This document shows positions 27,173 to 62,866 of a DNA stretch of 64,000 nt, piece by piece (the first letter of the stretch is position 1; each line of letters starts with the position of its first letter). The notes below the pieces were generated by a model. The model worked only from the letters and a program-made list of their open reading frames with translations. It had not been told where the DNA came from and did not search any database. Position numbers and translations under genes: made by a program. Source of the stretch: an uncultured delta proteobacterium (GTDB lineage Bacteria > Myxococcota_A > UBA9160 > SZUA-336); NCBI GenBank assembly GCA_963704165.1, contig CAVPHD010000004.1:160001-224000 (forward strand), written 5' to 3'.

Positions 27173-27202
27173 TGTGGACTCCTATCCGTATCGCGGTTGT
27201 GA

Positions 27203-30665: not shown

Positions 30666-30680
30666 GCCCTCGCGCCTGAC

Positions 30681-32696: not shown

Positions 32697-32698
32697 CT

Positions 32699-33136
32699 CT
32701 AGGGCGCTTTGCCCAGGCTGCGGACGTGCGCGACGAGTGCTTTGACCACGTCGGCCTTCGCGATCAGATCAGGATTGCTGGGCATCATCGGGCTGCGACC
32801 GACCGCGGCGCCGCCGTAGAGAATGATCTTGTTGATGTGGTCGTCGGTGACCGACTGCTGCCAGGCCGTGTCGTGGAAGTTCCTCGGCTTGGGCGTCAGA
32901 GCCGCCGACCCCGGTCCATCGCCCATCCCCGTCTTACCGTGACAGGTGTAGCACCGCGTCTCGAATATCTGTATCGCTTCGGCGCGAACTGTCTCACTCG
33001 ACGCGGGTGCGGGCGCCGCCGCGGGTGCAGGCGCTGCGGCTGGAGTGGGGGCTTTTCCCCCTTCATCCGCGGATCCGCACGCGATCAGTGCGCCAACCAG
33101 GGTCAGCGCGCCGGTTACTTTCACGAGGCCCTTCAT
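32699..33136 (-). CDS. Monoheme cytochrome c lipoprotein, likely NosZ electron donor
   Basis: Lipobox LIAC, CYTCH, G.GDGP...PKPRNF, distal Met in SPMMP. Ends 2 bp upstream of nosZ. Confidence 0.88.
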   Translation of the reverse strand: MKGLVKVTGALTLVGALIACGSADEGGKAPTPAAAPAPAAAPAPASSETVRAEAIQIFETRCYTCHGKTGMGDGPGSAALTPKPRNFHDTAWQQSVTDDHINKIILYGGAAVGRSPMMPSNPDLIAKADVVKALVAHVRSLGKAP

Positions 33137-33223
33137 CCGAATCTCCTTTCGCCCTACGCCCCCAATGCACGGAGCAAGCCGACTTTCGTCCGGTATGCTG
33201 CGGGTGGAAGCGAGGCAGGCTGC

Positions 33224-34105
33224 ATGATCGACGAACACCCGTTCGGGCGCACCGGACATTCCAGCTCACGCATCCTGTTTGGCGCGGCGGCCCTCGGAGG
33301 CATGAAGGAAGAGCGCGCGGATCACGTGCTCGAGCTGCTTTTCCAATACGGCGTGAACCACATCGACACGGCCGCAAGCTACGGGGATTCGGAGCTGCGG
33401 CTGGGGAAGTGGTTGCGAACGTATCGCGCCGACTTCTTCTTGGCAACGAAGACGGGGGAGCGCTCTTACGAAGGTGCGCGCGCGGAGCTTCACCGTTCGC
33501 TCGAGCGACTCGGTGTCGACCACGTCGATCTGATCCAGATGCACAACCTCGTCGAGCCCGACGAGCAGGCCCGTGCGCTCGGACCGGGAGGCGCGCTCGA
33601 GGCCCTCGTCGAGGCGAGATCGGAGGGACTCGTGCGCTTCATCGGCGTCACGGGCCACGGCACACGCGCGGCGACGATGCACGCCGCGAGCCTGGCCCGC
33701 TTCGATTTCGACTCGGTCCTCCTGCCCTACAGCTACACGATGATGCGTATACCCGAGTACGCGACCGAGTTCGAGGCTCTCGCCGCGCTCTGTTCGGAGC
33801 GCGGTGTTGCCCTGCAGACGATCAAGTCGATCGCGCGGCGCCGCTGGCGGGAGGGCGATGCGTCCCGGCGTTTCAGCTGGTACGAGCCGATCCGCGATCC
33901 CGAGGCGCTGCGCCGTGCGGTCCACTGGGTCTTGGCTCGACCCGGCGTCTTCCTGAACAGCTCGAGTGACGCGACCCTGCTCCCCGCGATTCTCGAGGCG
34001 GCGAATGAGGTCGCCCCGCGCCCCCCGGACGACGCGATGCTCGCCGACGCCGAGCGGCTCGAGGTGGAGCCGCTCTTCGTCCGCGACGTCTCCGACCGGA
34101 TCTGA
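33224..34105 (+). CDS. Aldo/keto reductase
   Basis: FGRTG..SSR..FG, GVNHIDTAASYGDSE, LATK, SLERLGVDHVDLIQMH, GLVRFIGVTGH. Confidence 0.9.
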   Translation: MIDEHPFGRTGHSSSRILFGAAALGGMKEERADHVLELLFQYGVNHIDTAASYGDSELRLGKWLRTYRADFFLATKTGERSYEGARAELHRSLERLGVDHVDLIQMHNLVEPDEQARALGPGGALEALVEARSEGLVRFIGVTGHGTRAATMHAASLARFDFDSVLLPYSYTMMRIPEYATEFEALAALCSERGVALQTIKSIARRRWREGDASRRFSWYEPIRDPEALRRAVHWVLARPGVFLNSSSDATLLPAILEAANEVAPRPPDDAMLADAERLEVEPLFVRDVSDRI

Positions 34106-45762: not shown

Positions 45763-45916
45763 GTGCGCCCATGATCGGGGGATCCGGCTCGCGGCCGCCA
45801 TCTCGGTCCCGCAACGGGACTTTTCGGCGTCGAAATCTGGTCTCTGGGCCGAGTATGAGCCAATATGACGCCGCTCATACGCCGCGTTTGCACGCGGGAG
45901 TACGGTGTCACTGTCA

Positions 45917-46441
45917 ATGAAGACGAACTCCGAAATGAGCGAGATCCCGGCCGTTGTCGTGGCCCAGGTGAACGGCCGCGTGGTGAACCAGAACGCGACC
46001 GCCCGTCGCCTGATGGGAGACGGCGAAGGCCGCGACTGCTGGCACGTCGTCGGAGGTCTGAAGGACGCGGAAGGCTTGCCGTGTCGCACGGGCTGCGTCC
46101 GTGAGCTGCTCGCGAGCGGAATGGACCGCGCCCGGCACACGCGCATCTCGCTCGCCGGGCGACAGCACTCCCTGACCTGCGTGCCGATCGAGGGCGCGGT
46201 CGTCTGTTCGCTGAGCTCGCCCTCGGCGCAGCAGCCGGAGACGTGGGAGCTGCTCACCGCGCGCGAGCGCGACGTGCTTCGGCTTCTCGCGCTCGGAAAG
46301 ACCGACCGCGCGATCGCGGCCGACCTCGGGCTCAGCAGCTCGACGGTGCGAACCCACGTCGAGCACATGCGCTCCAAGCTCGGCGTCGGCACGCGGGCCG
46401 CGTTGGTCGCCCGCGGCTTCGACCTGGGTTTCCTGTGCTGA
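45917..46441 (+). CDS. LuxR-type HTH regulator with an N-terminal Cys-rich PAS-like sensor
   Basis: C-terminal LTARERDVLRLLALG.TDRAIAADLGLSSSTVRTHVEHMRSKLG. N-terminal VV.QN.TARRLMG...DCW.VV.....GLPC..GC. Confidence 0.88.
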   Translation: MKTNSEMSEIPAVVVAQVNGRVVNQNATARRLMGDGEGRDCWHVVGGLKDAEGLPCRTGCVRELLASGMDRARHTRISLAGRQHSLTCVPIEGAVVCSLSSPSAQQPETWELLTARERDVLRLLALGKTDRAIAADLGLSSSTVRTHVEHMRSKLGVGTRAALVARGFDLGFLC

Positions 46442-46470: not shown

Positions 46471-46488
46471 ATCGGTCAAATGACCGAT
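46471..46488. promoter_or_regulatory. Palindrome ATCGGTCA-AA-TGACCGAT, candidate LuxR-type operator upstream of nod
   Basis: Perfect 8-2-8 inverted repeat about 120 bp before the nod start, with no U-tract. Confidence 0.55.
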
Positions 46489-46607
46489 TCGCAGCAGATC
46501 CGACCCTGCCTAGGATCTCGCCGGATTTCCATCCGGACGTTTTCGATTCCAAGACGGGAATGGTGCCGTCTTGTTGTGTCGCCTCCAACCGACCGAGGGA
46601 GCCAGAA

Positions 46608-48931
46608 ATGAGCAATGAGAAGAGGAACCTAGCCCAAGTACTGCACGACAAGAAAACGTGGTGGGTCCACTTTCTGATCGTCGCTGCAATCTGTCTGAGC
46701 GGGCTCGTCTATCTCGGCACGGAGACCTACTACGGGGGCTCCGCCGCTCGAGAGCTACGTCTCGACCTCGGGCGAGGTGGTGATCCCGCTCGAGCAGATC
46801 AAGCAGGGTCAGGAGGTCTTCCACCTCCGCGGTCTGATGCTCTACGGCTCCTTCTGGGGTGACGGTGCCGAGCGCGGGCCGGACTTCACGGCCGACGCCC
46901 TGCACCGGACCGCCGTCGCGATGCGGGAGTACTACGAGCGGCACACGGAAGGGGCGCTGACGCAGTACGACAAGGACGCGATCAGGGCCCGGGTGATCCG
47001 CGAGATCAAGACGAACACCTGGAACGAGGGCGCGAAGAACATCGTGGTCAACGATGCTCAGATCCACGCGTTCCAGGAGCTGAAGACGCACTACACCAAG
47101 ATGTTCAACGACCCCGAGTACGCGGAGGCGTTCGAGCCGACGGGATTCATCAGCGACCAGGCCCAGCTCGACGCCCTGTCGGCGTTCTTCTTCTGGGGTG
47201 GTTGGGTTTCCGGCGCGAAGCGGCCGGGTCAGGAGTACAGCTACACGCACAACTGGCCGTACGATCCGGAGGCCGGCAATCTCGCGACGAACGAGACCCT
47301 GATCTGGAGCGTGGTCTCCATCTTCGGACTCTTCCTCGGCGTGCTCGTCATCCTGTACGTCTACGGCCAGTTCAAGGAGGAGGGCGATCCGTTCACGGGT
47401 AACGGGACGTCGCTCACCACGAACGACCTCGAGGTGGGCCGCATCCGCGCTACGCAGAGGGCCTGCTACAAGTTCTTCGTCCTCTCGATCATCCTGTTCG
47501 GGCTCCAGGTTCTCGCGGGAATGCTCGCGGCCACCGACTTCGTTCGCCCGTTCGGGATCTCGCTCGCGAGCATCATCCCGTTCACCGTTCTGCGCAGCTA
47601 CCACACGCTGTTCCAGATCTACTGGTTCTTCATGGCATGGGTCGGCTACACGGTCTTCTTCCTGCCGCGAATCTCGCGAGTTCCGGATGGCCAGCTCTTC
47701 CTGATCAACCTGCTCTTCGCGATCTGCATCGTGACGGGCGTCGGCGCGCTGGTCGGCATCTACGCCGGACAGACCGGAATGATCACCGGTCAGACCGCCT
47801 ACTGGTTCGGAAGCCAGGGCTGGGAGTTCATGGAGCTCGGCCGCGCCTTCCAGTACACGCTGCTCAGCTCGTTCGCGCTGTGGATCTTCATCATCTACCG
47901 CGCGGTCAAGCCGTGGCTGACGACGAAGAACGTCTGGTCGGTTCCTTCGTGGCTGCTCTACGGCAGCGGCATCATGGTCGGCTTCCTGTTCTTCGGGCTG
48001 ATGATCTCGCCCGATCAGAACTGGGCCGTCGCCGACTACTGGCGCTGGATGGTCGTGCACATGTGGGTGGAGGTGACCTTCGAGGTCTTCACCACCGTGA
48101 TCGTCGGCTACATGCTCGTACAGATGGGCCTGATCTCGCGCATGATGTGCGAGCGGGTCATCTTCCTGGCCGTCATGATGTTCCTCGTCACCGCGACGCT
48201 GGGCATCTCGCACAACTTCTACTGGATCGCGAAGCCGACCGGCATCATCGCGGTGGGCGGAGTCTTCTCCACCCTCCAGGTGCTGCCGCTGCTGCTCCTG
48301 ACGCTCGATGCGTGGCGCATGAAGTCCGAGGCGGTCCGCGCGCGGACGCACCTCCTCGCGGGACGGCAGGTCTACGTGATGGAAGGTGTCTGGCTGTACG
48401 TCCTCGCGGTCAACTTCTGGAACATCTTCGGAGCCGGCGTCTTCGGCTCGCTCATCAACCTTCCGATCGTCAACTACTACGAGCACGCGACCTACCTCAC
48501 CGGCAACCACGCACACGCGGCGATGTTCGGTGTGAAGGGCAACATCGCGATCGGCGGAATGCTGTTCTGCGCTCAGCACCTGCTCCCGAACAAGGTCTGG
48601 AACGAGAAGCTGATCCGGACGTCCTTCTGGTCGATGCAGATCGGTCTGCTTGATGATGATGGGTCTGGATCTGTTCCCGGTCGGCGTCTACCAGCTCATG
48701 CTCGTCTTCCGGGAAGGCCTGTGGTTCGCACGGACCCAGGAGGTTCTGACCGGGCCGGTGTGGGCGACCCTGACCTACATGCGCTCGATCGGTGGAACGC
48801 TGTTCATCGTGGGCGGCGTGCTGCCCCTGATCTGGCTGTTCCTGTCCAGGGCCGGCCAGCTTCGGCAGGAGACCCCGGAGCTCGAGCAAGAGGGCGAGTG
48901 GACCGTCTACGAGAAGGACTGGGCAGCGTGA
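46608..48931 (+). CDS. nod: Putative nitric oxide dismutase (Nod-type divergent qNor); apparent frameshifts near 46735 and 48648
   Basis: qNor scaffold (YGSFWGDG..RGPDFTADALH, YSYTHNWPYD, SQGWEFMELGR, heme ligands RSYH and NHAH). It has HMWVEVTFEVFTT, GISHNFYWIAKP (second FeB His to Asn), STLQVLP (Glu to Gln), no AHYxxE quinol motif, and RSIGG instead of R..(G/P)D. Confidence 0.85.
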
Positions 48932-48946
48932 GCTGACCCGGACGAG

Positions 48947-48999
48947 GAGGGGGTTCCGGCGCACAGCGGGTCGAGCCCGTCGGACGCCGGAGCCCCCTC
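48947..48999 (+). terminator. Strong stem-loop just after nod (terminator or mRNA-stabilising hairpin)
   Basis: GAGGGGGTTCCGGCG ... CGCCGGAGCCCCCTC form a 15-bp stem enclosing a small inner hairpin. Only a weak U-tract follows. Confidence 0.5.
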
Positions 49000-49082
49000 G
49001 ACGTTTCCATCGCGCTCGCGGGATAATGTGATGGGTCCGGTCGCGCACCGCGCGAATCGGATCGTGAGCTGGGAGTGCGCCC

Positions 49083-49460
49083 GTGGCCAACATGATCACC
49101 GAGGAATGCGTCAATTGCGGTGCATGTGAGCGCATGTGCCCGGGCGGCGGGATCTCCCAAGGGGAAGAGACGTTCGTCATCGATCCCAGCCGCTGCACCG
49201 AGTGTGTCGGCTTCCATCACACGCAGCAGTGCGCGCGGGTCTGCCCGGTCGATTGCTGCGTGATCGATCCGAACAACATCGAGACCGAGGCCGTGCTCTT
49301 CGAGCGCGCACAGAAGCTGCACGACATCACGGGCCGCGAAGTCGTGCTCGGGCCGGAGACTTCGCACTACCAAGCCCACAAGCGCACGCTCGGCACGACG
49401 CTGAAGAAGCTGAGCCGAGGCCTGACCGACGTCCTTCAGGGGCCTCGACGGCGTTCCTGA
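49083..49460 (+). CDS. YfhL-type 2x[4Fe-4S] ferredoxin
   Basis: ITEECVNCGACERMCP...IDPSRCTECVG.....QCARVCPVDC. Confidence 0.92.
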   Translation: MANMITEECVNCGACERMCPGGGISQGEETFVIDPSRCTECVGFHHTQQCARVCPVDCCVIDPNNIETEAVLFERAQKLHDITGREVVLGPETSHYQAHKRTLGTTLKKLSRGLTDVLQGPRRRS

Positions 49461-49607: not shown

Positions 49608-49895
49608 ATGTGGAAGTACTACGCGCTGATGTTCGTCGCCGTTGCGCTGATTCTCGCGTACACGTACGTTGCGGACCCCTGCCACAAGATGCTTCGAACC
49701 GACTTCGCGAAGGCGAATCCCAACTTCGTGATCCTGGATTCGGAGGCCGAGTCGGGTGCCCCGGAGAGTGTTCACTGCCGGATCTCGTATCAGAAGCCCG
49801 GTGACGACGGGACGTACGAAGACGTCTGGGTCTACCACCGGGGGAGACGGGTTGGGAGTTCTCCCGGGTCAGCGAGTCGGGAGCAAAGAGGCTGA
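49608..49895 (+). CDS. Small hypothetical membrane-anchored/exported protein
   Basis: N-terminal hydrophobic helix, two Cys, plausible codon usage. The 3' end is uncertain. Confidence 0.5.
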   Translation: MWKYYALMFVAVALILAYTYVADPCHKMLRTDFAKANPNFVILDSEAESGAPESVHCRISYQKPGDDGTYEDVWVYHRGRRVGSSPGSASREQRG

Positions 49896-49944
49896 CCTCC
49901 CCGTGACCTACGGTCCGCATCGCGTATCGGCGAATAGCGGCTGG

Positions 49945-50961
49945 ATGTGTCCCCGTTTCAACTCGGCGAGCCTTTTGCGCATGGTCCGCGAAGTGGCCCC
50001 GGGAGTTCTCGGCTTTCAGATGGGCGTGGAGCTGCGATTGTGGCTTCAGCGTCGGCGGGTCGGTGGAGAGCGCGTGCTTCCGACGGCGCTCTATCTCGAG
50101 ACGTCGAGCTACTGCGCCGGCGCCTGCGCCAATTGCTATGTGCCGGCCGTCGATCGTCGCCAACACCTCCAACTCGATGTCGGCATGCTCGATCGTCTGC
50201 TCGTCGCTGCAGAGAAGCTGCCGATCGCGTACGTCTGCATCGTCGGTGGCGAGCCGCTGGACCCATCGATCGTCGATCTCAACTTGCGCCTCGTGCGCGA
50301 GCACCCGCGCACGCGGTTCCTGATCTGCACGAGCGGTGAGCCGGAGATCGGGCCGGAGCTCGGACGCGAGCTCGGTGCGCTCCGCAACCTCTCCCTTCTG
50401 ATCTCGTTCGAAGGCCTTCCCGAGACGCATCAGAGCATCCGCCCCCGCGGCTCCTTCGACAACGCGAGCGCCGCCTTGGATGCCTACCGTCGCTACAGCG
50501 GCAGTCTGTGCGGAGCGAGCGTCACGCTCCGTCCGGACAACTGGCAAGAGGCCACGGGTCCGGAGTTCTTCCGGCAGCTCACGAGCGCGGGTGCTCAGTA
50601 CTTCGTCTACGCTCCGTGTGAGACCCGAACCGGGAACCAGATGCTGAGCCCGGAGCTGCACGCCAGCGCTCTCGATCGACTCGCCGAGCTCTCCGCATCG
50701 TCGAGTGCGCTGGTCTTCTCGTACCCCTTCGGACAGATCCAGGGACGACGAATCGCGCCCGCTCGACGCTTTCGTTCCCTCACCGTGGACTACCTGGGCA
50801 ACGTCTACATCGCGCGCCGTGGTGCGTGCTTCGGCAACGTCTACGACACCGACCTCGCTACGCTGCTCTCTCGGCCCGCGCTCCAGACCGCGTACAGTCA
50901 GGCCGCCGCTGGCCCCGCCCACTGGCGTCCGACGTCGGTGCCGACGGGCGCTTGGACCTGA
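49945..50961 (+). CDS. Radical SAM protein
   Basis: CAGACANCY, IVGGEP, ISFEG...H..IR..GSF and GASVT. Start uncertain. Confidence 0.85.
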   Translation: MCPRFNSASLLRMVREVAPGVLGFQMGVELRLWLQRRRVGGERVLPTALYLETSSYCAGACANCYVPAVDRRQHLQLDVGMLDRLLVAAEKLPIAYVCIVGGEPLDPSIVDLNLRLVREHPRTRFLICTSGEPEIGPELGRELGALRNLSLLISFEGLPETHQSIRPRGSFDNASAALDAYRRYSGSLCGASVTLRPDNWQEATGPEFFRQLTSAGAQYFVYAPCETRTGNQMLSPELHASALDRLAELSASSSALVFSYPFGQIQGRRIAPARRFRSLTVDYLGNVYIARRGACFGNVYDTDLATLLSRPALQTAYSQAAAGPAHWRPTSVPTGAWT

Positions 50962-50979: not shown

Positions 50980-51597
50980 TCACAGGTAGAGGCAGACGTA
51001 GAGCACGGGCCAGATGCCGACGGCGAAATACCACGAGATGCACGCGGCCGAGAAGGCGCTGCTACTCAGCGCGGCCCTCGCGGGGACGTTCTCATCGCGG
51101 AAGGGCTTGAGGCGCAGCCAGATGACGCTCAGGAAGCTCAGCGTCCCCACCACGTGCAAGGCGTGCATTCCGACGATGATGCAGAAGAACACGCCGTGAT
51201 CGCTCGAGGTCAGCGTCAGGCCGTCGTCGATCAAGTTGCGCCACACGATGCCCTGGAAGAACAGGAAGAAGCTGCCCAGAACGATCGCGGCCAGGAGGAG
51301 TGGACCGATTCGCGCGTCTCGATTGTCCCAGGTGCGCGCTGCCCGGAACACGAGGGCGCCGCTTGCCAGCAGTGCGGCGGTGTTGATCGCGGTCTCGCCC
51401 AGCGGGAACCAAGGCTGATTCGGGGGCGGCCAGACGGTGCCATCTACCGATCGCGTCAGCATGAACGCGGTCACCATTCCGAGGAACATCATCGCCTCGG
51501 AGACCACGATGACGATCATCGCGACCATGCCGCGATCGATCGCGAATCGGCGCGCGCGTCGATGCGGCTGAATCGAGACCACGTTCTGTCCGCTCAT
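50980..51597 (-). CDS. Stand-alone cytochrome c oxidase subunit III / NorE-like membrane protein
   Basis: SEAMMF.G...AF, NTAALLASG, LGSFFL.FQG..W, G.FF.I.VGMHALHV.G and WYF..GIWPVLY..LY. Confidence 0.8.
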   Translation of the reverse strand: MSGQNVVSIQPHRRARRFAIDRGMVAMIVIVVSEAMMFLGMVTAFMLTRSVDGTVWPPPNQPWFPLGETAINTAALLASGALVFRAARTWDNRDARIGPLLLAAIVLGSFFLFFQGIVWRNLIDDGLTLTSSDHGVFFCIIVGMHALHVVGTLSFLSVIWLRLKPFRDENVPARAALSSSAFSAACISWYFAVGIWPVLYVCLYL

Positions 51598-51719
51598 GCG
51601 CTGGACTCCCGCACGGGGCCGCTCGTCGGTGGGCACCACCGTCACGGCTTTCGAACGAATCGCATTCTATCAGTCGGCGACGCCGTCCGCCCAGGTCCGG
51701 CGGCAGAGGCTTCGGAAGC

Positions 51720-52373: not shown

Positions 52374-52391
52374 GGCGTCGATGGGTTCCGG

Positions 52392-52719: not shown

Positions 52720-52934
52720 GCCGCGCTACTGAGGCGGAACGCCCTCTTTTGCCGACCGATCTCGACAGAAGCGCCACAACGATAGCGAGTGGATAGTGGC
52801 AATTTGCACCATAATTCGTGGTTCCTGCCCATCCGATCCGGCTCCAGACGGCTCGCAGCGAATCTGGCGCGTGCGGCGACGCCGTCCTCGGAGCGGGTAT
52901 CCGACTTGCAATTGGCCGCCGCGGGAGGTCCGAC

Positions 52935-54617
52935 ATGCGCCATCTCGCAACGAATCGCACCCACTCTTTCGAACGAGCCCTCGCCCTGACGGCGCGAGTG
53001 CTCGGGTGCGTGCTCGCGATCGCGATCCTGGCGGGGTCCGCGTTTGCGGCCGAGCCCGCCAAGACCCCGGCGGTGGTCAAGCAGCCGGTGCCGAAGCTCA
53101 CCCCTGCCGAGCTCGCGGAGGGCACGCAGATCTACTTCGATCGCTGTGCGGGCTGCCATGGAACGCTTCGCAAGGGCGCGACCGGACCGAAGATCGACGA
53201 CGAGGCGATGCTCGAGAAGACTCTTTCGAAGCTCGAGGAAGTCATTCACGACGGCACCGACGCCGGCATGCCGGGCTGGGGCCGCACCGGCGAGATGACC
53301 GCGGCGCAGACCAAGCTGATGGCGAAGTTCCTGCAGAACCCGCCTCCGATTCCGCCCGAGATGAGCCTCGCGGACATGAAGAAGAGCCACAAAGTCTACG
53401 TGCCCGTCGACAAGCGGCCGACGAAGCCGCAGCACAAGTACGACGTGGACGAGCTCTTCGGCGTGATTCTGCGCGACGCGGGCAAGGGCGCGATCATCGA
53501 CGGCAAGAGCAAGGAGCTCATGACCGTCGTCGACACCGGCTTCGCGGTCCACATCTTCCGCTCGTCGGGGACCGGCCGCTACTTCTACACGATCGGCCGC
53601 GACGGCAAGGTGAGCCTGATCGACCTGTTCGCAGCCAAGCCCACCGTGGTCGCCGAGGTTCGAACTTGTTCCGACGCGCGCAGCGTCGAGGTTTCGAAGT
53701 ACAAGGGTCCGAAGGGCGACTTCGTCGACAAGCTCGCGATCGTCGGCTGCTACTGGCCGCCGCAGCTCGTGATCCTCGACGGGCAGACGCTCGAGCCCAA
53801 GAAGGTCATCTCCACCCGATCGATGACCTACGACACCAACGAGTACCACCCCGAGCCGCGCGTTGCGACGATCATCGCTTCGCACTTCGACACGGAGTGG
53901 GTCATCGCGATCAAGGAGACGGGTCTCGTCTGGCTGCTCGACTACTCGGACCTCGTCAACGTCAAGATGCACCAGATCGAGACCGAGCGGTTCCTCCACG
54001 ACGGCGGATGGGACGCGACGAAGCGCTACCTGCTGATCGCCGCCAACATGCGCGACCAGATGGTCGTCGTGGATACGAAGGAGAAGAAGTTCGTCACCAA
54101 GTTCGAGACCGGCGTGAAGCCCCATCCCGGGCGTGGCGCGAACTGGGACGATCCGGAGTTCGGTCCGGTGAGCGCGACCACGCACCTCGGCGAGGGGAAG
54201 ATCACGGTCTACGGATCCGACCCCGCGGGTCATCCGCAGCACGCGTGGAAGATCGTGCGTGAGCAGGAGACGGCGGGTCCGGGTCTCTTCCTCAAGACCC
54301 ACCCGAAGAGCGAGAACGTCTGGACCGACGCGACCTTCGCGAAGGACGGCAACTCGAATCAGACGATCTGTGTCTTCAAGAAGAAGAGCTTCGACGACGG
54401 CGCCCAGTGTTTCGAGGCGACCAAGCACGGGAAGATCGTGCACTTCGAGTACAACAAGGCCGGCGACGAGGTCTGGGCGTCCGTCTGGGACAGGAAGGGC
54501 GTGCTGATCGTCTACGACGACAAGACGCTCGAGGAGAAGGCTCGGATCGAGGCGGACTGGCTGGTGACTCCCACCGGGAAGTGGAACGTCTACAACACCG
54601 TTCACGACGTCTACTGA
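52935..54617 (+). CDS. nirS: Cytochrome cd1 nitrite reductase
   Basis: Signal peptide, YFDRCAGCHG.LRKGATG, ILRDAG, TGFAVHI.R.S, YHPEPRVA.I.ASH, FLHDGGWD, PHPGRGAN, LFLKTHP and TPTGKWNVYNT.HDVY. Confidence 0.97.
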   Translation: MRHLATNRTHSFERALALTARVLGCVLAIAILAGSAFAAEPAKTPAVVKQPVPKLTPAELAEGTQIYFDRCAGCHGTLRKGATGPKIDDEAMLEKTLSKLEEVIHDGTDAGMPGWGRTGEMTAAQTKLMAKFLQNPPPIPPEMSLADMKKSHKVYVPVDKRPTKPQHKYDVDELFGVILRDAGKGAIIDGKSKELMTVVDTGFAVHIFRSSGTGRYFYTIGRDGKVSLIDLFAAKPTVVAEVRTCSDARSVEVSKYKGPKGDFVDKLAIVGCYWPPQLVILDGQTLEPKKVISTRSMTYDTNEYHPEPRVATIIASHFDTEWVIAIKETGLVWLLDYSDLVNVKMHQIETERFLHDGGWDATKRYLLIAANMRDQMVVVDTKEKKFVTKFETGVKPHPGRGANWDDPEFGPVSATTHLGEGKITVYGSDPAGHPQHAWKIVREQETAGPGLFLKTHPKSENVWTDATFAKDGNSNQTICVFKKKSFDDGAQCFEATKHGKIVHFEYNKAGDEVWASVWDRKGVLIVYDDKTLEEKARIEADWLVTPTGKWNVYNTVHDVY

Positions 54618-54632
54618 TCGGAGGAAGGATTC

Positions 54633-55242
54633 ATGCAGCGTCTCCTGATCGCGGTCGTATCCGCGTGCGTCTTGGGTCTCGTATCGGGACCGGCGCACGC
54701 GGACGGAAAGAAGCCCCACCAGTTCGCCGGGGCCGTGAAGTGCCGGTCCTGCCACGAGAAGGACGAGATCGGAAACCAGTACGGGAAGTGGCTGGACTCG
54801 AAGCACGCAAAAGCTTGGAGCACGCTCGCGTCCGACAAGGCGAAGGAGTGGGGCAAGAAGCGGGGGATCGACGATCCCCAGGCTTCCGACAAGTGCGTCA
54901 AGTGCCACGTTGCCGCGCACGGCGAGCCCAAGCCGCGTCTCAGCATGAAGTACTCCCCCAAGGAGGGCGTGACCTGCGAGGCGTGCCACGGCCCGGGAAG
55001 CGACTACCGGAAGAAGAAGATCATGATGAACCAGGACGAGGCGGTGAAGAGGGGCCTCGATCCTGCAGACCGAGAAGGTCTGTCTGACCTGCCACAACGA
55101 CGAGAGCCCGGCTTGGGATCCCGCACGCTACAAGCTGGCCGGCGGCAAGACGGCGGGGTTCGACTACGAGCAGGCGAAGAAGGCGATCGCTCATCCCGTG
55201 CCCGAGGGGTACGACCCCTCGAAGGACAGCGGGGACGAGTAG
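54633..55242 (+). CDS. Periplasmic tetraheme cytochrome c (c554-like); apparent frameshift near 55065
   Basis: CRSCH, W..SKHAKA, CVKCH, EGVTCEACHGPGS and, after the shift, CLTCH..ESP...FDY...IAHP. Confidence 0.85.
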
Positions 55243-55267
55243 AGAATGCTGGACGAGGAGGGGCACG

Positions 55268-55899
55268 GTGAAGAGCTCGGGTAAGCGCGTTCTAGCCGCG
55301 ACCTGGACGGTCCTCGGCGGAGCTCTCGTCACCGTCCTCATGCTCTTCACGCTCCAGTGCTCCCACGACAAGGACGGGAGTCGCAGCGACTACCCGAGTC
55401 GCACTACTTCCACCCGAGCCCGCGCCCGTGCTCCTGGCCAGCCCCGAGCCGAGCGACGACTACTTTCCCTGCAGCGACTGCCACGACGAGACCATGAAGA
55501 CCAATCGAGCGCGCCGCGATGCTCGAGGACGATCACGACGATCTCGAGGCTCGCTCACGGAGATCTCTGGTGCCTGCAGTGCCACGTCGGCCGAGGACCG
55601 CGACTTGCTGCACCTCTCCGACGACACGGCCGTCGAGTTCGGGGAATCCTGGAAGCTCTGCACGCAGTGCCACGGAAAGAAACTCGCGGATTGGCAGGCG
55701 GGAGTGCACGGAAAGCGCACCGGTCACTGGTGGGGGCCGAAGGAGTACCGGACCTGCGTCTCCTGCCACGATCCTCACTCGCCGCGCATTCAAGGGAATC
55801 GAGCCGCGACCGCGGCCCCGGCGACCGGAAGAGATCCGCCGCGCGGCCGCCGTCGCCGAGGAAGCGCGTCCGCAGGAGGTCTCCGATGAAATCCGATGA
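55268..55899 (+). CDS. Membrane-anchored multiheme cytochrome c (4 CxxCH); several apparent indels
   Basis: N-terminal TM. CSDCH, WCLQCH, LCTQCHG....W..GVHGKRTG.W and CVSCHDPHSP, spread across frames. Confidence 0.8.
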
Positions 55900-56820
55900 T
55901 CGCGACGCGCCGCTCGACGCGAAGGGAGCCTCCCGGCGCAAGTTCCTGCGCACCGCAGTCGCGGGAGCGGCGGCGGTCACGGGGGTTGGCGCGCTCACCG
56001 GCTGCGAGTTCGACCTCGAGAGCGTGCTGCAGAGGCCATTTCCGCGAGATGTCGCGCGCGGATCTCGACCGGGTCCTCGAGCGGCTCCAGAAGAAGTACT
56101 CCACGCGTTACGGCGAAGGACGTGAAGGTCACCGCGACCGGGCCGATCGACGGGGTCGTCTTCGGCTACGGCCTCGACATCTCGCGCTGCGTCGGCTGTC
56201 GCAAGTGCGTGTACGCCTGCGTGGACGAGAACAACCAGTCGCGGGATCCGCAGATCCAATGGATCCGCGTCCTCGAGTTCGAGCGCGACCAGGTGATCCG
56301 CGGGATCAACCTCGAGGACGGCAACCCCTACTACGAGCACGAGCAGGTTCCCGCGGAGGACAAGATGTACCTCCCCGTCGCCTGCCAGCACTGCGACGAC
56401 TCTCCGTGCACGCAGGTCTGCCCGACGGGGGCGACGTGGATGGAGCCCGACGGAATCGTCGTGATCGACTACGACTGGTGCATCGGCTGCCGCTACTGCA
56501 TGGCGGCTTGCCCGTACGGCGCGCGCAAGTTCAACTGGGGCGAGCCGAATCTCCCCGCCGACGAGGTGAATCCGGACATGCACCTCCTCGGCAATCGCCC
56601 CCGGGCGCGGGGCGTCGTCGAGAAGTGCAGCTTCTGCATCCAGCGCGTGCGCGACGGGCGCTACCCCGCATGCCTAGAGGCGTGTCCGGTGGGCGCGCGG
56701 AAGTTCGGAAATCTCCTCGACCCGAACAGCGAGATCCGGCAGCTGCTCGCGACCAAGCGCACGTTCGTGCTCAAAGCCGAGCTCGAGACCCATCCCAAGT
56801 TCTTCTACTTCTGGGGCTGA
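55886..56820 (+). CDS. Tat-exported multi-[4Fe-4S] protein (NrfC/DsrO-like); apparent indels near 56040 and 56120
   Basis: Twin-arginine motif SRRKFL. CVGCRKCVYAC, CQHCDDSPCTQVCP, CIGCRYCMAACPYGAR and KCSFC...PAC..ACP. Confidence 0.9.
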
Positions 56821-56824
56821 TTCG

Positions 56825-58049
56825 ATGAACTCGGTTCTCCACTTCTGGCGCTTCATCGACGGCAGCGCGCGCGTGGTGGCGCGCGGCAATGCCGCGGCTA
56901 CTACGCGTGGCTCGGTCTCCTCGTGGCGGCTGATCGTGATCGGCGTCCTCGCATTCGGAAACCAGACTCAGAACGGCCTGATCGTCTCGAACATGCGCGA
57001 TCAGGTCTCCTGGGGCTTCTACATCGGGAACTTCGCCTTCCTCGTCGGTGTGGCCGCGGCGGCGGTCATCCTGGTGATTCCCGCCTACGTGTACAGGTGG
57101 GGACCGATCAAGGAGGTGGTGATCCTCGGCGAGATCCTCGCGGTCTCCGCGATCATCATGTGCATGCTCTTCGTCGCGATCGACGTCGGACGCCCCGACC
57201 GGTTCTGGCACCTGTTTCCTGGTGCCGGGACGCCGCACTTCCCCAGCTCGCTGCTGGTCTGGGACATCCTCGTCCTGAACGTCTACTTCGTGATCAACTT
57301 GTTCGTCGTCACCTACCTCGTCTTCAAGAGCTACATGGGCCAGCAGTACAACGTCGTCGTTCATCATGCCGGTGATCTTCCTCTCGATCCCGTTGGCGGT
57401 CGAGCATTCACACCGTGACCGCGTTCCTGTTCATGGGGCTGAAGTCGCGGCCGTTCTGGAACAGCGCGATCCTCGCGCCGCGCTTCCTCGCGAGCGCGTT
57501 CTGCTCCGGCCCGGCGCTGATGGTCCTGATCTTCTCGATGCTTCGGTCGGTTCGCCCGATTCCGATCTCCGGACACGGCGCTGCGAAAGATCGGCGAGCT
57601 GCTTGCCTACGCGATGGCGGCCAACCTGTTCTTCCTCGGCTGCGAGGTCTTCCGCGAGTTCTACTCGGCCAGCGCTCACTCGGTCCACGCCGAGTTCCAG
57701 TGGTTCGGGATCGAGGAGCGCGGAATCGCCGGCTACACGTGGTTCGCGCTCGCCTGCAACTCCATCGCGTTCGTGATCTTCCTGGTCCCCGCGCTGCGCG
57801 ACCGCATCCGGACCTCTGAGCGTGGGCTGTGCGCTCGCGGTGATGGGGGTCTTCATCGAGAAGGGCCTGGGACTTCTGCTCCCCGGGCTCACACCCGACG
57901 CGCTCGGCGAGGTCTACCACTACACCCCGAGCGTGAACGAGGTGCTCGTCGGCCTCGGGATCTGGGCCATCGGGGCGCTCTGCTTCACGCTGATGACGAA
58001 GGTCTCCATCGCCATCACGCTCGGCGAGTTCCGCCACCAGAAGACCTGA
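56825..58049 (+). CDS. NrfD/PsrC/DsrP-family quinol-interacting membrane subunit; several apparent indels
   Basis: MRDQVSWGFYIGNF.FLVGVAAAAV, DVGRPDRFWH, SLLVWD, IHTVTAFL, RPFWNSAILAPRFLASAF.SGPAL, IEKG.GL..PG and YTPS..E. Confidence 0.88.
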
Positions 58050-58104
58050 AGCTCGTCGGGTCGCGCAAGGTCGTCTCCGACCGCGACCTGCCTTCTCGAA
58101 GCAG

Positions 58105-58536
58105 CTACTTCGGTCCCGGGAGCGTGCGCACGAAGGCGACCATTCCCCAGATCTTCTCGTCGCTCCACGACTTGTCGGAGCCGGGGCCGAAGGCGGGCAT
58201 CTGCGAGCGCGGTGCGCCGCCCTTGAGGATCTGCCAGAAGAGCTGTCCGTCGGTTCGAGTTCCCATGTACGCGGAATCGGTGAGATCGACCGGTGGAACG
58301 GCTTGCCCCGTGGCCTCGTCGCCTCCGCCGTCGCCATTCGCACCGTGACAGCGCGCGCAGTTTGCCTTGAACTGTTTTGCGAAATAGGCCTGCTTCTTCG
58401 CGTCGAGCACGACCGGGTTCGTCGTCGTCGCGATCTCGGGCGGTGTATCGTCGCGCGCCGTCGATGACGATGCGCAGGCGAGAACCGCCACGAAGATCGG
58501 GATCGACAGAAGGCCGGTGATACGAGTCGGGTGCAT
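58105..58536 (-). CDS. Monoheme cytochrome c lipoprotein (NirC/NirM-like role possible)
   Basis: Lipobox VLAC, CARCHG, TDGQLFWQI..G....QMPAF and IWGMVAFVRTL. Confidence 0.85.
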   Translation of the reverse strand: MHPTRITGLLSIPIFVAVLACASSSTARDDTPPEIATTTNPVVLDAKKQAYFAKQFKANCARCHGANGDGGGDEATGQAVPPVDLTDSAYMGTRTDGQLFWQILKGGAPRSQMPAFGPGSDKSWSDEKIWGMVAFVRTLPGPK

Positions 58537-58559: not shown

Positions 58560-60005
58560 TCAGGGTTCGAGGCGCGTCTTGTTCCAGGCGTTGTACTTCC
58601 CGACCGGCATCGCGAAGGGCAGGCGCGCGACCTCCGCGAGGCTCCGCGAGTCGTAGGCGACGACGGCTCCTTCCGAGTGCCAGACGCTCACGAGTGCACG
58701 GTCTCCCTCCTTGGTGAACTCCGTGTGCATGGCGATCTTGCCGGGCGCCGGCACCAGAGCCTTCGCTCGAAGCTCGAGCGTGTCCTTGCGGACGAGCTGG
58801 ATCGCCTCGGTATTCGTGTCCACCCAGAGAAAAGGCGTCCCCGGGTGCGTGCGCACGAAGTATCCCTCTCCGCGCAGTGCGATCTCCTTCACGACCTCGA
58901 AGCGATCGAGCCGCACGATCGAGAGCCGCGGCGCGCCCGCGTGATTGAACGCGGCGTACGGCACCCCGTCGCGCTCGAAGAAGCACGAGGAGAAGAGGTG
59001 CGGCAATCCCTCCGTCGTCAGGGAACCGGCCTCGGCGCCCCGTTCGAGATCCCACAGGATCAACCGGGTTCCCCCGCGCGAGCTCGCGACGAGCTTCCGC
59101 GTACCGGGAACGAACGCGAAGTCCTCGAAAGGCTCCGGTAGATCGATCTGGCGAATCGAGAGATCGTCGGTGGACAGGAACAGCATTCGCGGTGAGTCGC
59201 GCAGCGTCAGCACGAAGCGGTCCTCGCCCGGCAGCGCGTAGACCGCGCTCGGTTTGCCGTCGAGGGCAAGCGAGGCGAGCGGGCGAAGATCGCCGTCGAG
59301 CACGACGAGAGATGCCGGGAGTTGATTCGCCACGACGACGCGGTCTCCGGCCGCGGAGATCGCGAGATTTCGCGTGTTGGCCGCGACCTTGATCCGTGCG
59401 ACCGGACGCCCGCGCGCGAGGTCGTAGAGAACGACCGTCCCGTCGCGGGTGGCGGCGACGACCTTCGTGAAGGCCGAGTCGAACTTGGGCCCGCCGTGGA
59501 TCTTTCCGGCGTCGAAGCGGTCGAGCTCGCGAAGCGAGTCACCGTCGAGAACGGCGATCCGCCCCGCGTCGCGCTCGACGACGAGGATGATGTTCTCGCG
59601 GTGGACCTCGGATGAAATCCTGTCCGCGTTGGCGGAAAACTCGGTCCGGCTTCGCGCGGCATCCTCGGTTCCCCAGGTGACCGACTCGACCGGTGTTCGC
59701 ATGAACGCGACCAGGCGCGCGGTCGTCGATTCGTCGACGACCGCGCGGAACGGCGGCATCTGGGTCGCGGGAAGTCCGTCGCGGATCACGGCGGCGAGCG
59801 TCGCGTCGTCCCTGCGTGCGAGTAGGTCCGGAAGCAGAGGCGGCGCGTAGCCGCCGTAACGGCGCTCTCCGTGACACGACGCGCAATGCTCCTGGTAGAC
59901 CGTGGCGGCCTCGGGCGTGTCCGCGGCGTGCGCGGGCGCGACGGGGATGAGCGTGAGGGACGACGAGATCCATCCGAGTAGGAGCAGCGCATTCACGTGG
60001 GGCAT
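58560..60005 (-). CDS. nirN: NirN-like cytochrome c + d1-type beta-propeller protein (heme d1 maturation)
   Basis: YQEHCASCHG.RR.GG..PPLLP, GLPATQMP.F, VVER, IHGGPKF, ATRDG, NTRNLAIS, YFVRTH, HTEFT and PVGKYNAWNK. Confidence 0.85.
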   Translation of the reverse strand: MPHVNALLLLGWISSSLTLIPVAPAHAADTPEAATVYQEHCASCHGERRYGGYAPPLLPDLLARRDDATLAAVIRDGLPATQMPPFRAVVDESTTARLVAFMRTPVESVTWGTEDAARSRTEFSANADRISSEVHRENIILVVERDAGRIAVLDGDSLRELDRFDAGKIHGGPKFDSAFTKVVAATRDGTVVLYDLARGRPVARIKVAANTRNLAISAAGDRVVVANQLPASLVVLDGDLRPLASLALDGKPSAVYALPGEDRFVLTLRDSPRMLFLSTDDLSIRQIDLPEPFEDFAFVPGTRKLVASSRGGTRLILWDLERGAEAGSLTTEGLPHLFSSCFFERDGVPYAAFNHAGAPRLSIVRLDRFEVVKEIALRGEGYFVRTHPGTPFLWVDTNTEAIQLVRKDTLELRAKALVPAPGKIAMHTEFTKEGDRALVSVWHSEGAVVAYDSRSLAEVARLPFAMPVGKYNAWNKTRLEP

Positions 60006-60165
60006 TGTAGCGAGGTGCATCCGGTCAGCGATCCGCTCTCGCGCCGCCGTCGTACCCACGGGCTCGCTCGGGCGAGGCGGTCGTCGCTCCTGCGCGGAGG
60101 CGAGCAGGGATCGGAAATCCGTGCCTCCGAAATGACACACTCTCGTTCCGGTTGGAGGCGACGAG

Positions 60166-61650
60166 ATGTCCGAGCCGAGCAAGACCCGTCCGACGCGACC
60201 CCGACGGCTCGCGGCCGTCGACCGCTGGGACATCGAGACCGACGTCGCGGTGATCGGCTTCGGTGGTGCCGGAGCGTGCGCCGCCATCGAGGCGCACGAT
60301 GCGGGAGCGGCGACGATCCTCTTCGAGCTCGCCAGTGCCGCGGGTGGATCGACGGCGCTGTCGAGCGCGGAGATCTACATGGGCGGGAACGGCGGCACGC
60401 GAGTCCAGCGCGCCTGCGGATACCAGGACTCCACGGAGGACATGTACCGCTACCTGATGCTCGCCGGCGGCGAGCAGGTCGACGAGGCCAAGGTGCGGAC
60501 GTACTGCGACGGCAGCGTCGATCACTTCGACTGGCTGGTCGCCTGTGGGGTTCCCTACAAGGACAGCGAGTACAGAGAGCGCGCGATCATGGCGCTGAAC
60601 GACGACTGCCTGCTCTACACGGGAAACGAAAAGGCGTGGCCCTTCAGCGCAGTCGCCGCGCCCTGTCCTCGCGGGCACAACCTCCAGGTCGAGGGTGACA
60701 ACGGCGGCCCTCTGCTGATGAAGATCCTCGGCGAGAACGTCGTCGAGCGCGGCATTCGGGTCGAGTACGACGCACGCGCCCTGACCCTGATCGCCGACGA
60801 AGACAATCAGGTGCACGGCGTCGTCGTCCGCATCGACCAGCGGGAGCTCAACGTCCGGGCTCGTCGGGGCGTGGTGCTCTGCGCCGGCGGCTTCGTGATG
60901 AACCCGTCGATGCTGAAGAAGTACGCTCCAATGCTGCTGCGAGGAAGCATGCCGATCGGAAATCCGGGCGATACCGGCTCCGGCATCCTGATGGGCATGG
61001 GCGTCGGGGCCGCGACGATCAACATGCACGAGGGCTTCATCAGCATCCCCTTCTACCCACCCGCCGCGACCACGTTCGGCATCTTGATCAACGCGCGGGG
61101 GCAACGTTTCATCAACGAGGATTGCTACCACGGACGGGTCGGCTGGCATCTGCTCCACCAGATCGGGGATCGTTTCTACTTCGTTCTCAGCGCCGAAGGT
61201 TTCAAGCGACCTTCGTTCCTGAACGCCGACATCGCGGGAACCGGTGAGACGATCGCCGAGCTGGCCGAAGAGCTCGGTCTCGATGCGGAGGAGCTCGGTC
61301 ACACCGTCGAGTTCTACAACCGTCATGCGGAGCAGGGCGTCGATCCGCTGTTTCACAAACACCGGGACTGGTTGAAGCCGATCGAGCCCCCGTACGTCGC
61401 GCTCGATTGCACACCCGGACGCGGCGTGATCATCCCGTACTTCACGCTGGGCGGGCTCGACACCCTGCCGACCGGAGAGGCCCTGACGGGCGAACGCGAG
61501 CCGATCCCGGGCCTCTACGCAGCGGGGCGCACGACCGCGGGACTTCCCCGGACCGGCTCCGGCTACAGCAGCGGAATGTCCGTAGGCGACGTCACGTTCT
61601 TCGGAAGAATGGCGGGCCGGGCGGCGGGACAGGCCCCACGTCGCGGCTGA
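60166..61650 (+). CDS. FAD-dependent oxidoreductase, 3-ketosteroid dehydrogenase / FAD_binding_2 family
   Basis: WD.ETDVAVIGFGGAGACAAIEA, GGSTALS, GGTRVQ.ACG, LLYTGNE, VVLCAGGF, GQRFINED.YH, FTLGGL, GLYAAG and YSSGMS.GD.TFFGR.AG. Confidence 0.82.
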   Translation: MSEPSKTRPTRPRRLAAVDRWDIETDVAVIGFGGAGACAAIEAHDAGAATILFELASAAGGSTALSSAEIYMGGNGGTRVQRACGYQDSTEDMYRYLMLAGGEQVDEAKVRTYCDGSVDHFDWLVACGVPYKDSEYRERAIMALNDDCLLYTGNEKAWPFSAVAAPCPRGHNLQVEGDNGGPLLMKILGENVVERGIRVEYDARALTLIADEDNQVHGVVVRIDQRELNVRARRGVVLCAGGFVMNPSMLKKYAPMLLRGSMPIGNPGDTGSGILMGMGVGAATINMHEGFISIPFYPPAATTFGILINARGQRFINEDCYHGRVGWHLLHQIGDRFYFVLSAEGFKRPSFLNADIAGTGETIAELAEELGLDAEELGHTVEFYNRHAEQGVDPLFHKHRDWLKPIEPPYVALDCTPGRGVIIPYFTLGGLDTLPTGEALTGEREPIPGLYAAGRTTAGLPRTGSGYSSGMSVGDVTFFGRMAGRAAGQAPRRG

Positions 61651-61672
61651 GGCCGTGGGCTATGCTGCCACC

Positions 61673-62866
61673 ATGCTCCCCGTCAGCGATTTGCTCGAGG
61701 TCGCGCGCCGGTCCGTTTCCGGAACCGACGTCGGTGCGCGCGCGCCCGCGCGGTTCGCGCCCCCCGGCGATGTGCCGTTCGTCGTGGTCTGGAACATCGG
61801 CATCCACTGCAACATGAGCTGTCCGCACTGCTATGCGGCTGCGACCTCGCGGCCCTCCCCGCACGACCTCGATACGAACGAAGGTCTCCGACTGCTCGAG
61901 CAGATGGCCGAGGCAGGCGTTCGCGTGCTGATCGCGAGCGGTGGCGAGCCGCTGCTGCGGCCGGACGTCTTCACGCTCCTCGCTCACGCTCGCGATGTCG
62001 GCCTCTCGCCGCAGTTGTCCACCAACGGTGTGCTGATCGACGAGGAGATCGCGGGCCGTCTCGCCGCCTGCGGCGTCGGGTACGTGGGCGTCAGCCTCGA
62101 CGGACTGCGCGACTGGAACGACGAGTACCGCGGGCTCGCCGGGGGTTTCGATCGCGCGGTCGCCGGCCTCGGGTTCGCGCGGGCCGCGGGCATGCGGACG
62201 GGCGTGCGCATGACCCTCACGCGGCGCAACGTCGATCAGCTCGACGGAGTCGCCTCGATCGCGGTCGAGTGCGGTGCCGACCGCTTCTACGTCTCGCACC
62301 TGGTCGATTCGGGTCGAGGCGCGAAGCTCGTGGGCGACGATCTCGATCGGGGCGAGGGTCGCGAGATGCTCGGGATCCTCTTCGAAACCGCCGAGCGTTG
62401 GCTCGATCGTGGCTGCGCGACGCGCGTCGTGACCGGATCGAACGATTCCGATGGTCCCTTCCTGCTGCGCTGGATCGAAGCGCGTTACGGCGCGGAGGCC
62501 GCCGGTCCGGTCGAGAAGCTCCTGCTCGAGCGCGGCGGCAACTCCGCCGGAGAGCGCATCTTGTCCGTCGATCATCGCGGGCGCGTCCATCCCGATCAGT
62601 TCTGGCGCTCGGCGGTGCTCGGCGAAGTGCGAACGACTCCGTTCGCGGAGATCCTCAAGCATCCGCTGCGCGAGCAGCTTCGCAATCGACTCGCGCACCT
62701 CGAGGGCCGTTGCGGTGCGTGCGGCTATCGCGCGCTCTGCCGCGGCTCGCACCGCGAGCGCGCGATCGCGCGTCACGGCGAGCTCTGGTCGCCGGATCCA
62801 GCGTGCGTCCTCGAGGATCACGAGATCGGCGTAGAGGAAGTTTCGGTCGGAGAGGTGCGCGCATGA
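61673..62866 (+). CDS. nirJ: Heme d1 biosynthesis radical SAM protein
   Basis: VVVWN...CNMSCPHCY, SGGEPLLRPD, YVGVSLDG, GVRMTLT, FYVSHLV.SGRG, VTGSNDSDG, GGNSAG, VHPD.FW and SPASM Cys CGAC....CRG..R.RA...DPAC. Confidence 0.88.
   Translation: MLPVSDLLEVARRSVSGTDVGARAPARFAPPGDVPFVVVWNIGIHCNMSCPHCYAAATSRPSPHDLDTNEGLRLLEQMAEAGVRVLIASGGEPLLRPDVFTLLAHARDVGLSPQLSTNGVLIDEEIAGRLAACGVGYVGVSLDGLRDWNDEYRGLAGGFDRAVAGLGFARAAGMRTGVRMTLTRRNVDQLDGVASIAVECGADRFYVSHLVDSGRGAKLVGDDLDRGEGREMLGILFETAERWLDRGCATRVVTGSNDSDGPFLLRWIEARYGAEAAGPVEKLLLERGGNSAGERILSVDHRGRVHPDQFWRSAVLGEVRTTPFAEILKHPLREQLRNRLAHLEGRCGACGYRALCRGSHRERAIARHGELWSPDPACVLEDHEIGVEEVSVGEVRA

Follow-up and report, generated by a model that had tools for sequence, protein, structure and literature searches.

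A gene of the nitric oxide dismutase clade with a predicted operator and accessory genes in a denitrification region of a likely UBA9160 bacterium

We analysed a window of 64,000 nucleotides, positions 160,001 to 224,000 of contig CAVPHD010000004.1 (C4) in assembly GCA_963704165.1, which carries a gene of the qNor family (nitric oxide reductases dependent on quinol) with the residue signature of the putative nitric oxide (NO) dismutase, Nod. The gene, called nod here, lies downstream of a perfect palindrome and a regulator gene and upstream of nirS. The gene, its diagnostic sites and the palindrome are as follows:

46608..48931, plus strand: nod, qNor-family heme-copper oxidoreductase of the Nod clade, 773 amino acids (aa) when read through (Pfam PF22085 and PF00115, tblastn, trees)
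46608-46733, 46735-48648 and 48650-48931, plus strand: the pieces of nod as assembled, split by two single-base insertions
47533..47547, plus strand: first half of the lost quinol site (His328 to Thr, Glu332 to Arg); the second half is Asp to Gly at 48794
48058..48279, plus strand: active-site signature, with the FeB His at 48058, Glu kept at 48070, Gly to Val at 48073, His-Asn at 48211-48216 and Glu to Gln at 48277
46471..46488, no strand: perfect palindrome ATCGGTCA-AA-TGACCGAT, 120-137 nt upstream of the nod start

The start of nod is the ATG at 46608, preceded by GAGGGAG, and its stop ends at 48931. The core frame matched the solved qNor 3AYF at E 8e-112, and the two Pfam domains stand in qNor order, with no heme c. 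In the alignment, His328, Glu332, Gly513, His560 and Glu581 of 3AYF are replaced by Thr, Arg, Val, Asn and Gln, and His508, Glu512, His559, His651 and His653 are kept. Read in the DNA, the FeB His of the HMWVEVT motif is the CAC codon at 48058, GISHNFYW holds His at 48211 and Asn at 48214-48216 (AAC), STLQV holds Gln at 48277 (CAG), and AATDFVRP holds Thr at 47533 and Arg at 47545. The second Gly of RSIGG, at 48794 in the C-terminal piece, occupies the alignment column of the Asp that other solved qNors have in R..(A/G)D. The heme b and b3 ligands (His 47602, 48508 and 48514) and two FeB His (48058 and 48211) are all kept. Every residue call of the preliminary description of this DNA, including the loss of the quinol site (Thr and Arg for His328 and Glu332, Gly for the quinol Asp) and the retention of the heme ligands, proved correct when the coordinates were re-read and the protein was aligned to 3AYF, and the Nod-type signature that it had named matches the definitions given in PMC3413370 and PMC11549561. 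An identity as canonical qNor (NorZ) was rejected, as the His-His FeB pair, Glu581, the quinol His and the quinol Asp are all replaced.

The His-Asn pair, the Gln, Val513 and the five kept His were invariant in 120/120 homologues, these residue counts referring to the best 120 of the 1887 homologues listed. Since Asn and Gln recur in all 120, they are not sequencing errors, a possibility raised in the preliminary description and now ruled out. In an IQ-TREE phylogeny of 40 rows, all 29 Asn/Gln rows formed one clade apart from nine His/Glu qNors (support 100/100). A FastTree phylogeny of 91 rows, left after 26 of 117 had been removed beforehand as near-duplicates, fragments or long outgroups, likewise gave one clade of Asn/Gln proteins apart from His/Glu qNors and cNorB. 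Within the Nod clade, 11 rows, the window protein among them, form a subclade (100/100) whose members are Myxococcota-type genomes and one spirochaete metagenome-assembled genome (MAG); the clade also contains L024, which Elbon et al. name as a Gamma-type Nod, and UBA9160 genomes that Ruff et al. list as NOD. By these trees, the window protein belongs to the Nod clade, apart from qNor and cNorB at 100/100, the placement that the preliminary description had expected. It had also foreseen mislabelling by annotation pipelines, and the database names of the relatives are indeed 'nitric oxide reductase subunit B' or 'cbb3-type oxidase subunit I'. Cultured strains with an intact relative of this gene include Roseovarius amoyensis and Terasakiella brassicae.

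The 16-nt core of the palindrome upstream of nod has its only exact copy in the genome at this site. Of 80 named loci, 18 have a site with at most three mismatches to the window's letters within 400 nt upstream of nod, and 16 of these sites lie between -92 and -136; 20 shuffles gave 0-5 loci (mean 0.9). Such sites were found at 12/15 loci with the LuxR gene vs 6/65 without. Among nine other Nod genomes, eight have a site at 0-4 mismatches; G013, the only Nod genome without the regulator, has a best site no better than 6 mismatches. The named loci and the genome sets overlap, and these counts are not additive. With a matrix built from these 18 other sites, the window site ranks first in the genome, at 28.5 bits vs 18.8 for the next, and no strong matrix site was found by nirS or nosZ or elsewhere in the window. 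We predict that the LuxR-type regulator has its operator at the palindrome. Between the palindrome and the nod start, at 46521-46536, there is another short inverted repeat (CCGGAT-TTCC-ATCCGG), and a scan for sigma-70 promoters and terminators gave nothing useful.

By clustering the open reading frames (ORFs) of 84 nod loci and mapping the window genes onto those loci, we obtained a set of accessory genes that accompany nod in shuffled order across loci; they are listed here with a hairpin that follows nod:

45905..46441, plus strand: LuxR/GerE-type regulator with an N-terminal PAS-like domain (PF00196)
48940..49006, plus strand: strong hairpin directly after the nod stop (-52.2 kcal/mol, z -5.0, 0/200 shuffles), with no T-run
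49083..49460, plus strand: YfhL-type 2x[4Fe-4S] ferredoxin, encoded in addition to the housekeeping paralogue (NF033683 above cut-off)
49608..49895, plus strand: 95-aa protein of no known family, with a membrane helix at the N-terminus followed by a domain that has two invariant Cys
49756..50961, minus strand: radical-SAM-like ORF with a CxxxCxxC motif and no family match (sequence)
50980..51645, minus strand: extra COX3/NorE-like paralogue (cytochrome c oxidase subunit III; PF00510)

Their distribution was compared across 61 genomes, our own and 60 relatives, of which 10 were called Nod carriers at 69% identity or more to the 773-aa homologue P0002, with Asn and Gln read directly in G007, G022 and G040; these genomes are kin, not independent, so that Fisher tests overstate the associations and are given no weight here, and several assemblies are fragmented. 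The regulator domain, which has five invariant Cys in a 19-sequence alignment and PAS_4 as a weak lead (score 0.90), was found in 9/10 Nod genomes vs 0/51 others and is predicted to be a metal-cluster sensor of NO or O2. The extra YfhL ferredoxin, scored at >170 bits, was present in 8/10 vs 0/51, and so was the COX3 paralogue, both thresholds being set after the table was seen; for COX3 the count comprises seven genomes above 240 bits and an eighth with a nod-adjacent 41% copy, the best non-Nod genome reaching 184 bits. The 95-aa protein, again in 8/10 vs 0/51, had no Pfam or NCBIfam match; it has 186 homologues, the named ones 'hypothetical', and its gene also adjoins nod in gammaproteobacterial, chloroflexi and spirochaete MAGs. 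Searched in metagenomes, it gave only two loci, each next to nod and with a copy identical to the query, and little can be read from them. In the window, the final WxF motif of the family is missing from this protein, probably owing to another frameshift. The radical-SAM-like ORF occurred in 4/10 vs 0/51, two of the matches containing stops. The hairpin may stabilise or terminate the transcript. In some genomes a partner lies on a contig other than that of nod; this holds for LuxR in G039 and G056 and for the small protein in G017 and G022. Within the limits of fragmented assemblies and non-independent kin, such a layout suggests co-retention in addition to co-transfer. The set is missing from most Nod loci that belong to neither the UBA9160 nor the Gamma group, so not every Nod enzyme needs it.

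Three further arrangements were seen around nod. Downstream of Gamma-type nod at L027 and L029, at about 15.5-16 kb and on the opposite strand, there is a cNorB-like oxidase of 484-487 aa (HxWVEA, His-His, 26% to Nod). A second, 40-43% Nod-like paralogue directly follows nod at L145:16800-18583 (G017), with an internal stop or contig end. On contig C4, past the end of the window at about 227700-229900, genes for a hemerythrin and a 430-aa membrane protein lie roughly 20 kb downstream of nod, and they are near nod in several relatives.

The assembly that contains the window comprises 3.87 Mb in 12 contigs, with 68% GC and 84% completeness. RpoB was 76% and 73% identical to that of two genomes whose whole-genome shotgun (WGS) prefixes match UBA9160 genera of Ruff et al., while a third deltaproteobacterial MAG gave 74%, Bdellovibrionales 62% and a gammaproteobacterium 56%, as pairwise identities only, with no match in 4/10 genomes and no NC10 sequence among them; the 16S gene was 91% identical to that of an uncultured Myxococcales MAG. 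These values are consistent with Myxococcota_A, class UBA9160, as the likely host, in line with the earlier view that it does not look like NC10. A second, frameshifted rpoB with an rpoC-like neighbour lies on contig C5 at about 300900-308000, with about 72% DNA identity to the main copy of G007. Nod was found in 1/11 same-genus genomes, a patchy distribution that fits gain or loss of a cassette.

The window also holds genes of denitrification on both sides of nod:

26546..33259, minus strand: clade II nos cluster of cytochrome c, nosZ, nosD, then nosF-, nosL- and nosY-like genes (TIGR04246 pieces and TIGR04247 above cut-off)
52818..54617, plus strand: nirS, intact cytochrome cd1 nitrite reductase (E 1e-164 to solved cd1 nitrite reductases; PF02239)
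54633..58348, plus strand: c554-like and multiheme cytochromes, DsrO/QrcC-like Fe-S protein and NrfD/DsrP-like membrane protein, with several frameshifts
58560..64000: heme d1 synthesis genes, nirN-like (minus strand), nirJ and nirF-like (plus strand), with an FAD oxidoreductase between (family searches)

The nirS gene is 4 kb downstream of nod, and NirS is the likely source of NO for Nod. The genes at 54633-58348 are predicted to form a dedicated path of electrons from quinol to NirS; the c554-like, multiheme, DsrO/QrcC-like and NrfD-like genes follow nirS in the same order in G007, G022 and G040. Divergent from nirS, at 52276-52719 on the minus strand, is a fragment with only the N-terminal motif of uroporphyrinogen-III methyltransferase (NirE-like), probably frameshifted. 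The nos cluster lies 14 kb upstream of nod, with nosZ in at least three frameshifted pieces; the nosF-, nosL- and nosY-like names are presumed from gene order. Next to this cluster, at 23292-26528 on the plus strand, a 1078-aa secreted-looking protein with C-terminal thrombospondin-like and dockerin-like motifs is encoded, which is absent from the matching stretch of G007. In the 84% complete genome we found no narG and no cytochrome bd, and NapA was the best match for none of the six molybdopterin matches scanned (of seven found).

Three COX1-family genes were found in the genome, namely nod, an A1-type oxidase and a B-family-derived enzyme. The first of the two latter enzymes carries GHPEVY, and we take it to be of A1 type. 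In the B-family-derived enzyme, Gln stands for the cross-link Tyr (GHMSQQVN aligned to ba3 oxidase), with a CuA subunit II upstream. This combination is the mark of eNOR (PMC8756737), and by this motif the enzyme (L112, contig C7) is an eNOR-type NO reductase; the Rhodothermus eNOR has been shown to reduce NO (PMC11214002). The gene lies at L112:831-3129, with the CuA subunit II and a SCO-like gene. Among the compared genomes, eNOR was present in 8/10 Nod carriers vs 9/51 others, nosZ in 8/10 vs 17/51 and nirS in 5/10 vs 4/51. Since eNOR occurs in all eight genomes with a close nirS, and within 6 kb of nirS in three, it is eNOR and not Nod that seems to work with NirS in ordinary denitrification. 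G022 and G040 additionally keep a canonical qNor. The idea that Nod fills a missing NO reductase step is ruled out by the eNOR of this genome. The nos cluster, the eNOR-type reductase, the Nod-specific accessory genes and the palindrome all go beyond the preliminary description.

For the function of the window protein, we put at roughly one in two the chance that it splits NO from the neighbouring NirS into N2 and O2, the O2 being used by the A1 oxidase and oxygenases. According to the proposal of Ettwig 2012, two NO would be bound by heme b3 and the non-heme metal and would rearrange without net electron input, a mechanism that its authors called speculation (PMC3413370). The Cys-rich LuxR would sense NO or O2 through a metal cluster and switch nod on at the palindrome, the ferredoxin might prime or re-reduce the Nod site, and the 95-aa protein and the COX3 paralogue are candidate partners in assembly or gas access. 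The O2 formed would go to the A1 oxidase or to oxygenases, and the host encodes many O2-dependent enzymes (14 P450 matches, 12 AurF-like matches, two Rieske oxygenase matches and three flavin monooxygenase loci at E<=1e-20). Because the genome has eNOR, Nod is not needed for the step from NO to N2O, which mildly favours dismutation over a ferredoxin-fed reductase; eNOR and NosZ would carry the ordinary route from NO through N2O to N2 and leave another job to Nod.

Several points weigh against dismutation. As the preliminary description had cautioned, the activity is unproven: no purified Nod has been shown to make N2 and O2, according to a 2026 paper the isolation of Nod has not yet been achieved, and there are reports of opposing results (PMC13386854; bioRxiv 2023.11.21.568154). 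Several NO reductases per genome are common (PMC11214002), so the redundancy with eNOR is a weak argument. With its equipment the host can lead an ordinary aerobic life, and its oxygenases do not depend on O2 made inside the cell. Neither the P450 gene nor the flavin monooxygenase gene beside nod is conserved there, G007 having neither at that place, and as O2 clients of Nod these neighbours are unsupported. No nirS was seen in half of the Nod genomes (5/10). The trees hold no Methylomirabilis or HdN1 sequence, and that link rests on the published residue definitions. Finally, none of the sequencing runs examined contains the host strain (best share of words 0.07). Separately, at 5/84 loci (L138:8070-9032, L002, L005, L008, L133) the neighbourhood of nod includes a di-iron oxygenase of AurF-like type with a small ferredoxin, and our genome has a 62% match to this oxygenase, with ferredoxin, on C1, far from nod; this oxygenase is a possible O2 client of Nod.

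A plausible explanation, though one short of an even chance, is that Nod is an N2O-making NO reductase fed by a non-quinol donor such as the dedicated ferredoxin, its N2O passing to the NosZ encoded 14 kb away. The kept heme b ligands and Glu512 agree with it, as do the extra ferredoxin that tracks Nod, the ferredoxin of a different family beside Gamma-type nod (20/84 loci) and the higher frequency of nosZ in Nod genomes given above. There is also precedent: gNOR, in which Asp takes the place of an active-site His, is a proposed NO reductase (PMC11214002), and foraminifera with a neighbouring Nor clade make N2O, yet that clade shares only 2/8 site residues with Nod (PMC6783311). In 8/10 Nod genomes, however, eNOR already covers this step, and two keep a qNor as well. 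The cytoplasmic ferredoxin would moreover lie across the membrane from heme b, given the side on which heme b sits in the qNor topology, and without Glu581 the supply of protons is expected to suffer (PMC3413370).

It is improbable, in our judgement, that Nod performs some other NO chemistry that does not feed metabolism, such as dismutating NO to N2O and O2, acting as a sink with high affinity for NO, or protecting from NO stress. A regulator and box of its own, separate from nirS, nosZ and eNOR and without another strong matrix site in the window, would suit such a role, as would the patchy distribution (1/11 same-genus genomes), and dismutation of NO to N2O and O2 has been described in other microbes, with enzymes unknown (PMC11549561). 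Nod lies inside a respiratory denitrification island, however, and no positive evidence was found for any specific alternative product.

The three pieces of nod match P0002 at 88, 94 and 87% (tblastn), and the protein read through with X is 773 aa long and 92% identical to it without gaps. The two indels noted in the preliminary description are real features of the assembly, each a +1 insertion relative to the same-genus genome G007, near 46731 and near 48653. Extra-base breaks against G007 likewise occur in nosZ, an acyl-CoA dehydrogenase and the nirS-linked cytochromes. Overall, 49 of 155 gene alignments to G007 were broken (from 215 G007 ORFs tried, with one row a duplicate), 66 of 92 events were +1, and 8/9 sampled contigs were affected. 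An 8-kb rpoB region was free of frameshifts in its coding parts, the rpoB neighbour included, and the rate of insertion errors across the assembly is uneven. The dN/dS of nod was 0.20, 0.16 and 0.13 against three relatives (624-codon core), and the core is under purifying selection. Since +1 insertions are spread through the assembly, both breaks are probably assembly errors and the gene is probably intact. Contigs derived from reads, from three RNA runs, belong to relatives at roughly 80-93% identity and have no bearing on the habitat or expression of this strain. That nod is a recent pseudogene broken by two real frameshifts, for which one could cite the breaks themselves, the clean rpoB and neighbour and the equally broken nosZ and nirS-linked complex, is very improbable in view of the same +1 pattern in about a third of sampled genes across contigs, the absence of nonsense codons and deletions from nod, the low dN/dS, the intact nod of every relative read, and the relatives' contigs, which lack the extra base near 48651.

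Beyond the enzyme itself, we tentatively propose that Nod of the UBA9160 and Gamma types may be the core of an undescribed, self-regulated module, in which a five-Cys PAS-LuxR protein would bind TCSGTCA-NN-TGACSGA and the ferredoxin, the 95-aa partner and, in UBA9160, a spare COX3 would serve a working O2-generating NO dismutase, so that a heterotroph could run oxygenases and an A1 oxidase on nitrite beside a complete NirS-eNOR-NosZ route; taken as a whole, this is rather unlikely. If it is true, the accessory partners would be the missing parts for expressing active Nod, and the palindrome box would provide a reporter for the inducing signal, whether NO, low O2 or substrate, which would reveal the purpose of Nod. 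Dark O2 production by Nod is a question dating from 2010, and one more nod gene leaves it as it is; the locus adds a testable list of parts, namely candidate accessory genes and a predicted regulator-operator pair. In a host of this type, with eNOR covering NO reduction, the two routes could be told apart by knockouts or inhibitors. Because pipelines count nod as norB and miss eNOR, the potential for N2O is misread.

The newness is low for the nod gene and moderate for the set of regulator, operator and accessory genes. NOD has been reported in at least 16 phyla, with 12 UBA9160 species among 30 of the 32 'Myxococcota' supplement rows (Ruff et al. 2024, PMC11549561), and one Myxococcota MAG has both nod and nirS (Elbon et al., bioRxiv 2023.11.21.568154). 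The latter authors also described Gamma-type nod flanked by LuxR regulators and ferredoxins, with no consistent neighbourhood, and a helix-turn-helix (HTH) gene and a 4Fe-4S gene have been noted beside planctomycete nod (cold-seep paper, PMC11828985). In the text available, publications on nod and LuxR only name the regulator. For the palindrome, the 95-aa protein and the COX3 paralogue we found no published description in the open literature, although Fig. 1B of Elbon et al. and Fig. S3 of PMC13386854 may show small genes unlabelled. No publication joining UBA9160, nod and nirS was found in a search outside subscription journals, and the passages seen of a paper on UBA9160 and denitrification gave no mention of Nod.

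Compared with canonical qNor (3AYF/3AYG and the plasmid qNors L127-L130), the window protein has the same fold and domain order at 32-34% identity, but it lacks all four of the His-His FeB site, Glu581, the quinol His and the quinol Asp. DAMO_2434 and DAMO_2437 of Ca. Methylomirabilis oxyfera show His to Asn, Glu to Gln, no quinol site and kept heme ligands, as here (PMC3413370), and the spacing from the Asn to the b3 His is 98 residues in both (N564/H662 in Methylomirabilis, PMC3413370; N536/H634 in P0002). Unlike Methylomirabilis, with the comparison made by published features only, the window host has a single nod copy and is not an NC10 methanotroph. The Gamma-type Nod (PBRC01000062 of NP964, which is L024; the group is said to include HdN1) has the same signature at 69-71% identity, and its loci share the Cys-rich LuxR, the palindrome and the 95-aa protein with the window. 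They differ in their host, in a ferredoxin of FdxA type instead of YfhL type, and in cytochrome b561 and MORN-repeat neighbours where the window has the COX3 paralogue. The nearest known systems are the UBA9160 NOD entries of PMC11549561 (genera PR03, CAADGG01, JAFDDB01, JADFDR01 and others), which are of the same class as the likely host; the passages seen cover presence and phylogeny, and gene context, regulator and operator are not in that text. Loci with matching WGS prefixes or isolate name encode Nod proteins 72-86% identical to that of the window, in or beside its subclade, and its close relatives at 81-86% identity are among the published UBA9160 carriers. The nod of the window is a further member of an already catalogued Nod family.

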